From contig NZ_JBHSTI010000008.1 of NCBI RefSeq assembly GCF_042660085.1, positions 1,117,836-1,149,835 of the forward strand: 32,000 nucleotides of DNA, read 5' to 3'. Position 1 is the stretch's first letter; each line of letters begins with the position of its first letter. Shown piece after piece: positions 1,586-32,000 of the stretch. Under the pieces are notes generated by a model. The model made no database searches and was not told where the DNA came from. It saw only the letters and a program-made list of their open reading frames with translations. The DNA comes from Longivirga aurantiaca. Lineage in GTDB: Bacteria > Actinomycetota > Actinomycetes > S36-B12 > CAIYMF01. The position numbers were made by a program, and so were the translations under genes.

Positions 1586-1771
1586 GAGGCGCGTAGGTGG
1601 GTGGCGGATCCGTCGCAGGGCGCACGCTGGCTACCCGGGTAACCAGCGAGGCGCGTAGGTGGGTGGCGGATCCGTCGCAGGGCGCACGCTGGCTACCGGG
1701 GTAACCAGCGAGGCTCGTGGGTGAGTGCGGAATCTGTCGCAGAGCGCACGCTGGTTACCCGGGTTGGCGGG
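1586..1771 (+). repeat. three tandem 62-bp units of the GTTACCCGGGTAAC-core REP-like family
   Basis: Units 1586-1647 and 1648-1709 are near identical (CTACCCGGGTAACC vs CTACCGGGGTAACC). The third unit, 1710-1771, has the canonical module GAGTGCGGAATCTGTCGCAGAGCGCACGCTGGTTACCCGGGTT. The array lies between the USP start and the stop of the 1782..2723 gene. Confidence 0.9.
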
Positions 1772-1781
1772 TGCGAGGCGG

Positions 1782-2723
1782 CTACTCCGCGGCCAGGGTG
1801 CGCAGCTCGGCGATGGCCTTGCCCGCAGTCCTGAGGTAGTACCACGGCCAGTCCTGGATGCGGTCGCCGAGCGCGTCGATCTGGTGTGCGCCCTCGGCCT
1901 TGTTCTCGCTCACGTACGACGTCATCGCGAAGGTGTTGCGGGCGATGACTCCGGCGGCGTCGTCGGGGAAGCCGGGCAGCCACGAGGAGGCCGCGGCGTC
2001 AGCGAGCTCCTGTGCGACGGCCGCCGAGGAGATGTAGCCGCGCGGAGGCTTGCCGCTGACCCAGTACTCGAGGTGCGCGATGCCGATCAGCTCGTTGAGC
2101 GGCGACGGCGCGGAGGTGTCGCGGTGCTCCCGGGCGAACGCGAACATCTGCTCGTGGCTGCCGCTCCACTTCTCGCAGATGCCCTGCAGCGCCTGCTCGT
2201 GCAGGGCGAGGAACGACTGCCCGCCCGCCGCGACACCGCGGTCGAACCGGGCCCTTACCTCCGACGGGCCGTACTGCAGACCACGGCCGAGGAGTACGGC
2301 GGTGCACCACGACAGGGGAGCGCTCGCCCACGGGGTGAGCGCAGGCTGCAGCACCCGCTCGGCCGCCTCGAGGTAGCCGAAGAACCCCTCGAACTTGCGG
2401 GCGCCGACCGTCTCGGCCATCCCGTGGCCGCGGATCGCCCAGCCGGCCTGCACGAGCGCCTGCGCGTAGACGGTCGAGGCGAACGGGTCGTCCTGCTTCG
2501 TGTCGTACCACGCCTGGATGCGGTCGAGGTCGGCCGCGTCGTTCATCCGCGTCAGCGCCGCGTGGATGTCGTCGAGGCTCTCGGCACGGGCGGCGATGCC
2601 CTCGAACTGCGCGATCTCGCCCGCCTTGCCCGCCGCCAGGGCCTCGGTGACCGTCGCGATCCCGAGGTCGGGGCTCTCCACGAACCTGGTGCTCGGCTTG
2701 GACGTGCGCGAGAACAGACCCAC
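1782..2723 (-). CDS. hypothetical alpha-helical protein (DUF4034-like from motif memory, unverified)
   Basis: 313-aa ORF with a GTG start preceded by AAGGGGGAAG (revcomp of 2726-2735) and strong GC3 bias. The segment EKWSGSHEQMFAFAREH and the W-rich helical stretches recall DUF4034-type proteins. Confidence 0.75.
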   Translation of the reverse strand: MGLFSRTSKPSTRFVESPDLGIATVTEALAAGKAGEIAQFEGIAARAESLDDIHAALTRMNDAADLDRIQAWYDTKQDDPFASTVYAQALVQAGWAIRGHGMAETVGARKFEGFFGYLEAAERVLQPALTPWASAPLSWCTAVLLGRGLQYGPSEVRARFDRGVAAGGQSFLALHEQALQGICEKWSGSHEQMFAFAREHRDTSAPSPLNELIGIAHLEYWVSGKPPRGYISSAAVAQELADAAASSWLPGFPDDAAGVIARNTFAMTSYVSENKAEGAHQIDALGDRIQDWPWYYLRTAGKAIAELRTLAAE

Positions 2724-2780
2724 GACTTCCCCCTTCGATGTGCGGCCGATCGTAGGGCGCGGGCTCCGCTCAGGCGTGGT

Positions 2781-2903
2781 TCGGCGTACGTCGGGTGTCG
2801 AGCGTGTTCCGGGGCGCGCGCTCGGCGTACCCGGGTAACGGGAAAGGGGCGTAGCTGAGTGCCGAATCCGTCCCAGAGCGCACGCTGGTTACCCGGGTAA
2901 CGG
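2781..2903 (+). repeat. REP-like repeats: one diverged-subfamily unit plus one canonical unit
   Basis: 2781-2841 reads TCGGCGTACGTCGGGTGTCGAGCGTGTTCCGGGGCGCGCGCTCGGCGTACCCGGGTAACGG. 2854-2903 reads GCTGAGTGCCGAATCCGTCCCAGAGCGCACGCTGGTTACCCGGGTAACGG. The TACCCGGGTA cores at 2828 and 2890 are 62 bp apart. Confidence 0.85.
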
Positions 2904-2907
2904 CCGA

Positions 2908-29595: not shown

Positions 29596-29707
29596 GATGA
29601 GTGCGGATCCCGTCGTAGAAGGCACGCTGGTTACCCGGGTAACGGGCGGCGGCGCTGGCTGGGTGCGGGTTCCGTCGCCGGGCGAACGCTGGTTACCCGG
29701 GTAACGG
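29596..29707 (+). repeat. two tandem REP-like units (62-bp period) in a divergent promoter gap
   Basis: 29596-29645 reads GATGAGTGCGGATCCCGTCGTAGAAGGCACGCTGGTTACCCGGGTAACGG. 29658-29707 reads GCTGGGTGCGGGTTCCGTCGCCGGGCGAACGCTGGTTACCCGGGTAACGG. The spacer is GCGGCGGCGCTG. Confidence 0.9.
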
Positions 29708-29806
29708 CGGGTGACGTGGGTCGCGTTGACGCAGGGCTTCGGGAGCGGCGTACGGCGGGGTCTGGCAGGGTCGGCCTAGGCCGTACGGCGACCGGAGGGG
29801 CAGGCG

Positions 29807-31900
29807 ATGTCGGAGAGTCTCTACATCACCTCGGCCTCGCCGCGCGCGGGCAAGGCGGTCGCGGCGCTCGGTGTGCTCGAGCTGCTCGCGCGCCGCGTCG
29901 ACCGCATCGGGCTGTTCCGCCCGCTGATCGACGGCGACGGCACGCGCGACGCGCTGGTCGAGCTGCTCGTCGACCGCTACGACCTCGACGTCGACCTCGC
30001 GACCGCGTGCCCCATGACGTACGCCGATGCCGCGCGGCACCTGGAGTCGGGCCACCAGGACGCGGTCGTGACGGCGGCGGTCGAGGCGTTCACGTCTCTT
30101 CGACAGAAGTACGACTTCGTGCTGGTGCTCGGCACCGACTACACCGGGCCGGCGGCGTCGACCGAGCTCGACCTCAACGCGACCCTCGCGGCCAACCTCG
30201 GCACGCCGGTGCTGTCGGTCGTCTCGGCGTGGGACAGCGAGCCGGACGACGTACCCGCGGCGGTCGCGCAGGCGCGGCACGTGCTCGCCGACCACGGCTG
30301 CACGCTCGTCGGCACGCTCGTGAACCGCGCGGATCCGGTGCGCCGCGACGAGATCGAGGCGCTGCTGGTCGCCTCGGCACCGGACGAGCCGGTGTGGGTG
30401 CTGCCCGACCTGCCCGTGCTGTCGGCGTTGACCGTCGACGAGGTCGCCACCGCCCTCGACGGCACGGTGCTCGCGGGGGAGCCCGCGGATCTGCAGCGCG
30501 AGGTCGACCGCTTCGTCGCCGGGTCTGCGCACGTGCCGAACGTGCTGCCGCTGCTCGACACCGGCGTGCTGCTCGTCGCGGCCGGCGACCGTGCGGATCT
30601 CGCCGTCGCGATGGCGGCGTTCGCCTCGAGCCCCGACCTGCCCACGCCCGCGGGCCTCGTCGTCACCCTCGGCCTGATCCCGGATCCGCTGACGCAGCAG
30701 CTGCTGCGCGCGTCGCGGCTGCCGGTGGTGGCGGTCGAGCTCGACACGTACGCCGCTCTGCACGAGATCGAGGGCCTGCGCGGCGAGATCCGCGCGGGGT
30801 CGCGGCGCAAGATCGCCGCGGCGCTGGGGGAGTTCTCGGCGCATGTCGACACCGAGCGCCTCGCGTCGCGGATCCGGTTCAGCACGTCGGAGACCGTGAC
30901 GCCGTTGATGTTCGCGGTCGACGTGCTCGAGCGGGCGCGCGCGGACCGCAAGCGCATCGTCCTGCCGGAGGGCACCGACGAGCGGATCCTGCGCGCTGCG
31001 GAGGAGCTGCTGCACGGGCGCGTGGTCGACCTCGTGCTGCTCGGCGACCCGGGAGTGATCGCCGCGAAGGCGGCCGCGATCGGCGTCGACATCTCCGCTG
31101 CCGAGATCATCGATCCCGCGAGGTCGCCGTTGCTTCCGTCGTTGGCCGCGCGGTACGCCGAGCTGCGCGCCCACAAGGGCGTGACGCTCGGGCGGGCGCA
31201 CGACCGTGTGATCGACCCGTCGTACTTCGGGACGCTGCTGGTGGAGACCGGTCGCGTCGACGGCATGGTGTCGGGCGCGACGCACACCACCGCCGAGACG
31301 ATCCGGCCGGCGCTCGAGGTGATCAAGACCGTGCCGGGCGTCTCACTGGTGTCGTCGACGTTCCTCATGTGCCTGCCCGACCGCGTGCTTGCCTTCGCCG
31401 ACTGCGCGGTCAACGTGGATCCGTCGGCGGAGCAGCTGGCCGACATCGCGTCGTCCACCGCCGACACGGCCGCGGCGTTCGGCATCGTGCCGCGGGTGGC
31501 GATGGTGTCGTACTCCACCGGGGAGTCCGGGTCCGGTATCGACGTCGAGAAGGTGCGGCTGGCGACGTCGCTCCTGGTCGAGCGCCGCCCGGATCTCCCC
31601 GTGGCCGGCCCGATCCAGTACGACGCCGCCGTGGATCCCGCAGTCGGTGCGTCGAAGATGCCGGGCAACGACGTGGCGGGGCACGCGACCGTGCTGGTGT
31701 TCCCCGACCTCAACACGGGCAACGCGACGTACAAGGCGGTGCAGCGCTCGGCCGAGGCCGTGGCGGTCGGGCCGGTGCTGCAGGGCCTGCGGCGTCCGGT
31801 GAACGACCTCTCGCGCGGCTGCACCGTGCCCGACATCGTCAACACCGTCGCCATCACCGCCATCCAGGCCCAGTCGGTCGCGCCCGCCTCACGCGGGTGA
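29807..31900 (+). CDS. pta: phosphate acetyltransferase, long form (N-terminal DRTGG/AAA-like region + PTA domain)
   Basis: 697-aa ORF with GGAGGGG 6 nt upstream of the ATG. The N-terminus is MSESLYITSASPRAGKAVAALGVLELLARR. PTA-domain motifs include RIVLPEGTDERILRAA, DGMVSGATHTTAETIRPALEVIKT, VFPDLNTGNATYKAVQR and VGPVLQGLRRPVNDLSRG. Confidence 0.95.
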   Translation: MSESLYITSASPRAGKAVAALGVLELLARRVDRIGLFRPLIDGDGTRDALVELLVDRYDLDVDLATACPMTYADAARHLESGHQDAVVTAAVEAFTSLRQKYDFVLVLGTDYTGPAASTELDLNATLAANLGTPVLSVVSAWDSEPDDVPAAVAQARHVLADHGCTLVGTLVNRADPVRRDEIEALLVASAPDEPVWVLPDLPVLSALTVDEVATALDGTVLAGEPADLQREVDRFVAGSAHVPNVLPLLDTGVLLVAAGDRADLAVAMAAFASSPDLPTPAGLVVTLGLIPDPLTQQLLRASRLPVVAVELDTYAALHEIEGLRGEIRAGSRRKIAAALGEFSAHVDTERLASRIRFSTSETVTPLMFAVDVLERARADRKRIVLPEGTDERILRAAEELLHGRVVDLVLLGDPGVIAAKAAAIGVDISAAEIIDPARSPLLPSLAARYAELRAHKGVTLGRAHDRVIDPSYFGTLLVETGRVDGMVSGATHTTAETIRPALEVIKTVPGVSLVSSTFLMCLPDRVLAFADCAVNVDPSAEQLADIASSTADTAAAFGIVPRVAMVSYSTGESGSGIDVEKVRLATSLLVERRPDLPVAGPIQYDAAVDPAVGASKMPGNDVAGHATVLVFPDLNTGNATYKAVQRSAEAVAVGPVLQGLRRPVNDLSRGCTVPDIVNTVAITAIQAQSVAPASRG

Positions 31901-31907
31901 CCTGTCG

Positions 31908-32000
31908 TACCTGGGTAACGAGCGTGCGGCAGAGCGCACCCTCGTTACCCAGGTAAGGGTGCTTCGGCTTACCCGGGTAACGAGCGTGCGGCAGAGCGCA
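31908..32000 (+). repeat. REP-like long hairpin just after pta, plus the start of a second unit cut by the window edge
   Basis: TACCTGGGTAACGAGCGTGCG (31908-31928), loop GCAGA, then GCGCACCCTCGTTACCCAGGTA (31934-31955): a 21-bp stem with one mismatch. It starts 8 nt after the pta stop and may act as a terminator or stabiliser. A second copy, CTTACCCGGGTAACGAGCGTGCGGCAGAGCGCA, begins at 31968. Confidence 0.85.

Follow-up and report, generated by a model that had tools for sequence, protein, structure and literature searches.

We analysed a 32,000-nt window of the Longivirga aurantiaca genome (contig NZ_JBHSTI010000008.1, positions 1,117,836 to 1,149,835), in which most intergenic gaps hold copies of a short repeat built on the palindromic core TACCCGGGTA. 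The window has a G+C content of 72% and, by a gene map combining a codon-position G+C screen with Pfam, an ordinary chromosomal gene set: usp, abgT with an M20 peptidase gene, pta, and genes for an aminotransferase, a GATase and an EamA/cNMP transporter, together with those for two very large RCC1 and FG-GAP proteins, a LuxR-type STAND regulator and a small PPOX-class protein. Three open reading frames (ORFs) have no family match. The products of pta and of the aminotransferase gene are 100% identical to L. aurantiaca proteins (Sporichthyaceae, Actinomycetes). An earlier reading of the sequence alone (hereafter, the sequence-only reading) had described a dense intergenic family resembling the repetitive extragenic palindromic (REP) elements, palindrome-centred and non-coding, and our core counts, a profile search and the gene map all support this description. 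The window repeats are a real, lineage-restricted family of small non-coding hairpin repeats, located at gene ends and in 62-bp arrays.

Number and placement of the repeats

The exact core occurs 11 times in the 32 kb, where 100 shuffles gave an expectation of 0, and allowing up to one mismatch yields 19 occurrences against 0.34 expected. All 18 core positions listed by the sequence-only reading carry the core, 11 of them exactly and 7 with one mismatch; the nineteenth match, at 20157, is isolated, chance-like and within a coding sequence. Tandem Repeats Finder bore out the proposed 62-bp tandem period, with 2.9 copies (91% matches) at 1585-1764 and 1.9 copies (89% matches) at 26288-26404, and the repeat-finder family D2, comprising 13 copies of a 62-nt unit, adds the pairs 29585/29647 and 17902/17964. 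An nhmmer profile built from 10 units and run on the window reported at least 13 clear copies (E 8e-20 to 3e-5), every one on the plus strand, its minus-strand matches being only the palindromic core read backwards. Weak plus-strand matches at 19282 and 14519 belong to what had been described as a diverged subfamily (2781, 14517, 18198 and 19281). These copies are real and are more precisely decayed or differently armed foldbacks of the same superfamily; the one at 18198 has other arms and no TACCCGGGTA core (inverted repeat I25). Similarly, the core positions behind the proposed 2828-to-2890 spacing hold, while the spacing itself joins a decayed copy to a canonical unit. In total, about 17 elements lie in the window, which makes the repeats high-copy and extragenic there, as are REPs and bacterial interspersed mosaic elements (BIMEs). 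A CRISPR array was ruled out, since the entire 62-nt period is conserved between units (89-98% identity).

According to our gene map the arrays occupy 9-10 of about 14 real intergenic gaps, compared with the 10 of roughly 16 counted before, and no confident coding sequence contains any copy, as had also been claimed. The sole overlap is with the 3′ end of the doubtful ORF 17223-17921, whose TAA stop lies within a core. Eight of the nine arrays have an edge 2-16 nt away from the stop codon of a gene, on either strand; the exception is the array in the divergent gap that separates pta from the M20 peptidase gene. The sequence-only reading had noted copies behind convergent gene ends, behind single 3′ ends and inside a divergent gap, and had argued that they are not simply terminators; these placements were confirmed, with no U-tract terminator overlapping the repeats in a scan of 14000-32000. 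It missed that every window copy has the same, plus-strand, orientation, and also the underlying foldback and the differently armed foldbacks of sister genomes described below. All window elements and two additional ones in a collinear relative (L018, see below) read G(C/T)AGAG on one strand regardless of gene direction. Relative to flanking transcription, five of the window arrays are sense, three antisense and one divergent, and the gene maps of all loci give 11 sense and 6 antisense placements. Since sense and antisense are mixed in this way, orientation is not set by transcription, and we discarded that explanation. The individual elements are collected in Table 1.

Table 1. Repeat elements of the window, with the intergenic gap that each occupies, and foldback copies in two relatives
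Element	Coordinates	Strand	Gap	Composition and position	Evidence
Array 1	1585-1770	+	1467-1781	Three head-to-tail 62-nt units (1585-1646, 1647-1708, 1709-1770), flanked by the usp start (1466, -) and, 11 nt beyond the array end, by the stop of ORF 1782-2723 (-)	nhmmer E 7e-17, 7e-16, 2e-17; units 1 and 2 98% identical
Decayed ("diverged") foldback	2781-2842	+	2724-3161	Core at 2828; truncated form in L018	Aligns with short foldback 17902-17963
Canonical 62-nt unit	2843-2904	+	2724-3161	Stop of a truncated small-gene copy (2908-3000, -) lies 3 nt beyond the unit end	nhmmer E 1.4e-19; 95% identical to unit 17964
Diverged foldback GGCGTACCTGGTGCTGGATCGCGTCGTGAGGGGCGCGCTCGCTGCCCGGGTAC	14513-14578	+	14453-14589	Ends 15 nt before the EamA/cNMP gene stop (-)	Family D13; 84% identical to the 19277 copy by unit comparison; weak plus-strand nhmmer match
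Array 4	17862-18025	+	17922-18028	Diverged 62-type unit (17862-17922), 38-nt short foldback repeat (arms 17910-17931 and 17938-17959, loop GTAGAG), canonical unit (17964-18025)	nhmmer E 3e-7, 5e-9, 8e-20; inverted repeat I3, 95% complementary; RNA fold 17890-18030 z -5.5; DNA fold 17898-17934 z -4.3
Foldback of other arm type, CGTGCTGGATCGCG / CGCGATCCGGCACG	18198-18245	+	18144-18300	Without TACCCGGGTA core; part of a duplicated segment with the small-gene 5′ end	Inverted repeat I25, 14 nt, 93% complementary; family D5, 14410-14557 vs 18091-18238, 93% identical
Diverged foldback	19277-19338	+	19278-19429	Starts 3 nt after the GATase gene stop (+)	nhmmer E 0.0036; repeat-finder family D13, 95% identical to 14517
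Single 62-nt unit	21534-21595	+	21525-21753	About 10 nt after the stop of ORF 20718-21524 (+)	nhmmer E 2e-15
Array 7	26283-26406	+	26278-26408	Two 62-nt units filling the convergent gap between ORF 21754-26277 (+) and abgT (-, stop at 26409)	nhmmer E 2e-17, 9e-20
Array 8	29585-29708	+	29429-29806	Two 62-nt units directly upstream of the conserved pta leader; the gap separates the divergent M20 peptidase (-) and pta (+) genes	nhmmer E 1e-17, 3e-15
Array 9	31899-32000	+	31901 onward	Complete short foldback from the pta stop codon (arms 31908-31928 and 31935-31955, loop GCAGAG) and the first part of another, truncated where the window ends	Inverted repeat I4, 95% complementary; nhmmer E 3e-5
L014 hairpin copies	4905-4970, 6573-6624, 12080-12133, 13171-13228, 14538-14589, 15985-16048
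L013 foldback copies	9359-9481, 11668-11719, 17214-17336, 21199-21320

The foldback and its 62-nt derivative

The basic element is a foldback of about 55 nt, consisting of TTACCCGGGTAACGAGCGTGCG, a loop G(C/T)AGAG and then CGCACGCTGGTTACCCGGGTAA. Its layout is TTACCCGGGTAACGAGC-GTGCG-G(C/T)AGAG-CGCAC-GCTGGTTACCCGGGTAA, with TTACCCGGGTAACGAGC as the outer arm and GTGCG/CGCAC as the inner stem. This design is revealed by a second form of the repeat, with a 38-nt period, at 17898-17963 and 31899-32000. The short form contains the 32-nt palindrome CGCACGCTCG(GC)TTACCCGGGTAACGAGCGTGCG, preceded by GTAGAG or GCAGAG, and folds as single-stranded DNA (ssDNA) at -14.2 kcal/mol (z -4.3), a stem-loop of the kind found in REPs; for the array 9 foldback the corresponding values are -23.4 kcal/mol and z -6.6. 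Many copies have the 5′ flank CGGC|GTACC in common, and CGTC precedes GCAGAG in most 62-nt units.

The 62-nt unit, for which 22 aligned units from four genomes gave the consensus CGTAGGTGAGTGCGGAAnCCGTCGCAGAGCGCACGCTGGTTACCCGGGTAGCG, is homologous to the foldback over its full length, with a decayed left arm. In this arm GGCGTAGCTGAGT-GCGG replaces the expected GGCGTACCTGGGTAACGAGCGTGCGG, and GAATCCGTC is inserted before the loop. As the resulting left arm, GTAGGTGAGTGCGG plus GAATCCGTC, has lost its complementarity, the unit retains just the 14-bp palindrome GTTACCCGGGTAAC and the 5-bp stem. The palindrome is confined to the right third of the unit, and an asymmetric part of about 48 nt is conserved together with it. 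Owing to the decayed arm, a lone 62-nt unit folds no better than shuffled sequence. The ancestral element is most probably the hairpin of about 55 nt, and the 62-nt unit a half-decayed derivative that dominates the window and was multiplied head-to-tail. The core GGTTACCCGGGTAACC (e.g., window 17947-17960) contains one SmaI/XmaI site (CCCGGG) and two BstEII-type sites (GGTNACC).

We also looked for signs of a conserved RNA. Neither the 22 units nor 8 short foldbacks had pairing or covariation above column shuffles for any of the three candidate helices tried, and Rfam returned no match at the gathering threshold in the window or in seven related loci, with chance-level matches only at E up to 10; the sequence-only reading, too, had recognised no named repeat family. 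No tRNA or tmRNA genes were found in the window. With no covariation, no Rfam match and mixed orientation relative to genes, the copies seem to be alike because they were copied, not because a folded RNA was conserved.

A loop core, roughly GAA-CGCG-TC-GCAGAG(AG)-CGCG, is common to foldbacks of different types. At least six arm types can be distinguished, each self-complementary and with no sequence relationship to the others. For the types of two relatives of the window, L014 and L013, the ssDNA folds have z values of -4.1, -2.3, -5.5 and -11.9. L014 contains six copies in 22 kb of a 56-nt near-perfect hairpin, CGCTTTGGATGCCTGAGAGTCCCCTATAGGGGACTCTCAGGCATCCAAAGCG, all of them in intergenic gaps, and L019, another relative, has a related copy after the pta stop. 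The foldbacks of L013 form a separate family, CCATCGGATAGGAAGCGCGCTGCAGAGCGCGCG..CCATCCGATGG, repeated in tandem every 71 bp and occurring in both orientations within 12 kb; a full hairpin in L013 reads CTAG+GTGAGTGCGGAACGCG on its minus strand. An inverted pair of elements was seen only in L013, at 3260-3375.

Relatives and turnover at orthologous sites

To find out how far the family extends, we scanned 185,579 species-representative genomes with exact 20-mers. Three stretches only were matched, L001 and L003 from one uncultured Actinomycetes metagenome-assembled genome (MAG) and L002 from a 'Candidatus Nanopelagicales' MAG, and in each of them genuine 62-nt units stand in tandem. Further carriers of the family, obtained by protein-anchored retrieval, are L018, which is about 90% identical in DNA to the window and collinear with its positions 600-12847, and L019/L020. 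The family is present in five assemblies beyond the window, representing at least four distinct relatives. Confinement of the motif to the window, which the sequence-only reading had named as an outcome that would refute it, is not what we observed, since the family occurs at other loci in relatives. At the loci of L013, L014, L016 and L017 the family was not found, save for one diverged copy in L013. BLAST against plasmid and phage collections found no similar DNA. A metagenome scan with the pattern GCGCACGNNNGTTACCCGGGTA gave 9 loci, all of them single-copy chance matches in unrelated DNA and not members of the family. Our literature search for a description of Longivirga repeats had only community-survey papers among the matches listed.

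Two observations on individual contigs can be added here. A 4.8-kb Logan contig from L. aurantiaca itself, L015, breaks off within a repeat unit (its positions 4769-4803, equivalent to window ~26380-26410), and this end of a short-read assembly suggests that the repeats fragment short-read assemblies of the clade. L016, without the family, has another short hairpin repeat, GACAGCCCCCGACCACGGGGGGG, at 3734-3766, 7444-7472, 8046-8074 and 12943-12980, and these hairpins adjoin repeated 130-nt segments (4283, 6013, 12759).

The sequence-only reading had proposed a comparison of orthologous intergenic regions, and in this comparison array copy number differed, two versus four units at pta and three versus one at usp. 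Upstream of the conserved pta leader (GGGTGACGGGGGTCGCGTT...) the window has two 62-nt units, L002 four, and L019/L020 two short foldbacks. At the same place L013 has two units of another foldback, CCATCGGATAGGAAGCGCGCT-GCAG-AGCGCGCG..CCATCCGATGG, with a 71-bp period, and L014 has one of a third type, ATCTGGATGTCGGAAGTCGCT-GCAGAG-AGCGACATGTCGCATCCAGA. Directly after the pta stop codon there are short foldbacks in the window, L013's own type in L013, a 56-nt hairpin built on TTGGATGCC in L014 and L019, and another type in L002. Five genomes hence have different forms upstream of the leader, and likewise after the stop codon. In the usp gap the three units of the window correspond to one decayed unit in L018, and downstream of usp the window has none and L018 two foldbacks. 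At this last place the window contains a palindrome, CACGGGGATCCCGTG (395-409), which echoes the GGGGATCCC mini-palindrome of some 62-nt units and may be a remnant of a unit.

The sole case of presence versus absence is window 2822-2907, which is missing in L018. The junction has a 2-nt TC overlap and no target-site duplication, and, as the L018 copy is truncated, the difference points to a deletion in L018, the likelier event compared with an insertion. Target-site duplications, which together with a match to the termini of a known insertion sequence (IS) or miniature inverted-repeat transposable element (MITE) would have spoken against the sequence-only reading, were not seen in this one filled-versus-missing comparison, nor was there an IS in the window.

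Identity between copies gives clues to how they arose. Neighbouring units are 98% identical in the window and 89-93% in L002, and the first pta-array unit most resembles its positional orthologue in L002 (84%). Dispersed copies are up to 93% identical, compared with ~90% for the flanking orthologous DNA. Furthermore, the small PPOX/F420-class gene (107 aa, 14129-14452, -) has two truncated copies, at 2908-3000 (-) and 18029-18143 (-), one of which lacks 219 bp internally. The junction that connects each of them to a repeat unit is identical, GGGTAACGGCCGATCAGTCGG (unit plus small-gene 3′ end), which implies that a block of repeat and gene fragment was duplicated.

Some features of the window lie outside the family. 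The convergent gap between the FG-GAP and LuxR genes, which has no family member, contains a unique perfect 15-bp hairpin, TCGGTGGGCACCGCC, with a 12-nt loop and GGCGGTGCCCACCGA (11398-11439), an ordinary-looking non-repeat terminator candidate. Upstream of the aminotransferase gene, 830 bp (17039-17867) hold no confident gene, and within them are a perfect 21-nt tandem duplication (17507-17546) and a microsatellite of 3.3 copies of GCGGCTCCG (17838-17867). ORF 21754-26277 (+), of 1507 aa, has no Pfam or NCBIfam family, and over this ORF (22-26 kb) the AT skew is strikingly negative (-0.28 to -0.49), unlike the remaining window.

Origin, role and known counterparts

The repeats are dispersed, non-coding and palindrome-centred; they abut gene ends, amplify in tandem and vary in copy number, and sister types replace them at the same sites. 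REP/BIME families have been described as behaving in this way (PMC3733652). The explanation we favour, with a probability of roughly 0.7, is a REP/TRIT-like dispersed DNA repeat family (TRIT, the 'Tuberculosis Rho-independent terminator' motif, being a mycobacterial hairpin discussed below), lineage-restricted and locally amplified, whose palindrome gives putative 3′-end hairpins on either strand. Arrays would lengthen and shorten by replication slippage or by unequal recombination between units, and copies could reach or refresh other loci at the DNA level, either by trans-mobilisation of the hairpin or by gene conversion. The obvious candidate for a mobiliser would be a HUH transposase of the REP-associated tyrosine transposase (RAYT) type. 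Being a perfect palindrome, the core is predicted to form the same G+C-rich hairpin in transcripts of either strand, and this hairpin may be tolerated, or selected, as a putative 3′-end barrier, terminator or stabiliser that needs no U-tract.

Several observations weigh against this explanation. GTAG, the typical REP head, is the consensus head and is present in just 11 of the 22 aligned units. No clean empty site was found at the compared sites. In the terminator scan of 14000-32000 no stem-plus-U-tract terminator overlaps the repeats, and its sole site, 18675, is not a repeat. The window contains no Y1/HUH transposase or IS, and no mobilising enzyme was found. With arrays on both sides, ORF 1782-2723 was considered as a possible RAYT and dismissed, as it matched neither a Pfam nor an NCBIfam family and had a single homologue. 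Finally, the uniform plus-strand orientation (about eight independent window sites, two-sided p ~0.008) is predicted neither by a terminator role nor by slippage.

The orientation would be explained by a closely related possibility, that the repeats are bona fide REPs mobilised by a cognate RAYT (Y1 HUH) that reads the GTAG head and the hairpin on ssDNA at replication forks. Since ssDNA transposition is coupled to the lagging-strand template (PMC6006769), it would predict the uniform strand bias that all copies show. In the short form GTAG-AG precedes the 32-nt palindrome, the 62-nt consensus begins with CGTAGGTGAGTGCGG and includes CGTC, and a full L013 hairpin carries CTAG on its minus strand. 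However, no RAYT was found in the window or among the genes called at the loci of L013, L014, L016, L017 and L018, about half of the units lack GTAG, the units never form the inverted pairs typical of REPINs and BIMEs, and the sister family of L013 occurs in both orientations. Moreover, neither the REP survey (PMC3733652) nor the HUH survey (PMC6006769) mentions Actinobacteria. We regard this possibility as tentative. Somewhat more doubtful in our view are dedicated terminators of conserved sequence, similar to TRIT, which would be kept alike by selection for a factor recognising the stem or loop, without copying, the arrays being redundant terminators. The distance of at most 16 nt to a stop codon in eight of nine arrays, a palindromic core that works on both strands, the constant loop G(C/T)AGAG across arm types and the precedent of TRIT, a genus-restricted, sequence-conserved bidirectional palindrome of Mycobacterium tightly placed at stop codons (PMC3152330), would all fit. 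Yet one array lies in a divergent promoter gap and others upstream of gene starts, and the asymmetric 48-nt part is conserved always on the same DNA strand and is therefore antisense in three of nine gaps. The missing U-tract (T runs are absent from the unit sequences) and the fact that a lone 62-nt unit is not stabler than shuffles also disfavour terminators, and the near-identical neighbours and the duplicated junction of unit and gene fragment argue for copying rather than convergence.

An origin as MITEs, internally deleted IS derivatives with the foldback arms as terminal inverted repeats moved by a parent transposase, appears improbable to us. The foldbacks of about 55 nt are indeed essentially two inverted arms with a short centre, and many copies share their 5′ flank, but the single filled-versus-missing comparison gave the 2-nt overlap in place of a target-site duplication, the window has neither an IS nor a transposase, and plasmid and phage collections hold nothing similar. 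Head-to-tail arrays count against MITEs as well, and at least six arm types around one loop core are not expected from independent IS origins. It is still harder to see the arrays as operators at which a dimeric DNA-binding protein, either nucleoid-associated or a global regulator, would recognise GTTACCCGGGTAAC. Such a protein would suit a perfect and very strongly enriched 14-bp palindrome, the array in the divergent promoter gap and a 62-bp spacing of about six helical turns; it would not suit the location of most copies at 3′ ends rather than promoters, the 38-bp spacing of the short form, which is out of helical phase, the co-conserved asymmetric flank of ~48 nt, or the quite different palindromes at the same spots in sister genomes. 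Very improbable, finally, is a multicopy structured small RNA or cis-regulatory RNA family: the predicted hairpins and the conserved loop speak for it, and against it stand covariation no higher than in shuffles, the lack of Rfam matches, the 11 sense and 6 antisense placements and the lack of promoter-like sites in 14000-32000.

A broader and rather speculative proposal, which we consider unlikely as it stands, is that the window repeat is one branch of an undescribed actinobacterial foldback superfamily with a conserved loop core and hypervariable self-complementary arms. Its members would be read as folded ssDNA, via the loop, by a dedicated recombinase or nuclease, and copies would be inserted or converted at replication forks, in a manner resembling the reading of attC by IntI and of hairpins by HUH enzymes. 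This would explain the single orientation at ten sites of the window and its collinear relative, the other arm types of sister genomes at the same intergenic spots, and why no RAYT or IS was seen nearby.

Returning to the REP/TRIT-like family that we favour, small dispersed palindromic repeats are well charted in proteobacteria and barely in Actinomycetota. Canonical terminators are rare in the latter phylum, and the literature we surveyed describes no conserved 3′-end hairpin there other than TRIT. A dense, species-variable family in a freshwater Sporichthyaceae lineage is a candidate for 3′-end formation without U-tracts in high-G+C bacteria, and provides a compact test case for the turnover of hairpin repeats at fixed intergenic sites. 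Unit counts that differ between ~90%-identical genomes offer ready-made variable number tandem repeat (VNTR) markers, and the repeats would be a practical explanation for short-read assembly breaks in these genomes. Should the strand orientation follow the replication axis, a copying mechanism based on ssDNA would be indicated.

Among known systems, the mycobacterial interspersed repetitive units (MIRUs) contain small overlapping ORFs and follow the direction of the flanking operon genes. As tandem intergenic units of 40-100 bp whose copy number varies between close relatives, MIRU/VNTR loci resemble the window arrays; unlike them, the window unit is palindrome-centred and also dispersed as single copies. 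We ruled out a MIRU-type VNTR, as the period of 62 is not a multiple of 3 and the orientation is independent of flanking genes. Foldback MITEs (Correia/NEMIS, ERIC, RUP) are, like the foldbacks described here, small, non-autonomous, intergenic elements whose two inverted arms fold into a hairpin and which are transcribed into mRNA ends. The window elements differ in being much shorter (about 55 nt), in forming tandem arrays, in combining many arm types with one loop core, and in that no target-site duplication or parent IS was seen. Integron attC sites are similar in being hairpins after gene ends in one orientation, with structure kept while sequence varies. They were ruled out because R''/R' core sites are missing (RYYYAAC / GTTRRRY do not fit GGGTAAC / GTTACCC), and also by the tandem copies, the absence of an integrase and the ordinary chromosomal flanking genes (pta, abgT).

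The closest counterparts are of two kinds. TRIT (PMC3152330), which we could compare by description only, is likewise an actinobacterial genus-restricted palindromic hairpin, conserved in sequence and structure and located at stop codons without a U-tract. TRIT hairpins occur singly, as 147 copies whose centres lie within the coding sequence at about -8, whereas the window elements lie just outside the stop codon, form 62-bp tandem arrays, occupy one divergent gap and include a long asymmetric part. The placement of eight of the nine arrays, with 2-16 nt between array and stop codon, is of the TRIT type. REP/BIME elements (PMC3733652) are short G+C-rich imperfect palindromes of species-specific sequence and locally high copy number, mostly just downstream of coding regions, with a GTAG-like head, which many window copies also have. 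Head-to-tail REP dimers and clusters carrying flanking DNA have been described as well (PMC3733652), as in the window. In contrast to REP/BIME, the commonest window unit is 62 nt long with only its right third palindromic, all copies lie on one strand, strictly head-to-tail and with no inverted pairs, conservation across related types is highest in the loop rather than in the head, and the host is an actinobacterium, a phylum missing from that survey, with no RAYT in the window or the annotated loci of relatives. Membership in REP proper is accordingly not established, as GTAG is only the majority state, inverted pairs are absent and no RAYT was seen in the window or in the annotated loci of relatives. 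The repeats are a new family of a known kind of element, and the evidence does not require a new mechanism; in their shared loop core, their turnover at fixed sites and their strand uniformity they go modestly beyond a routine REP family.

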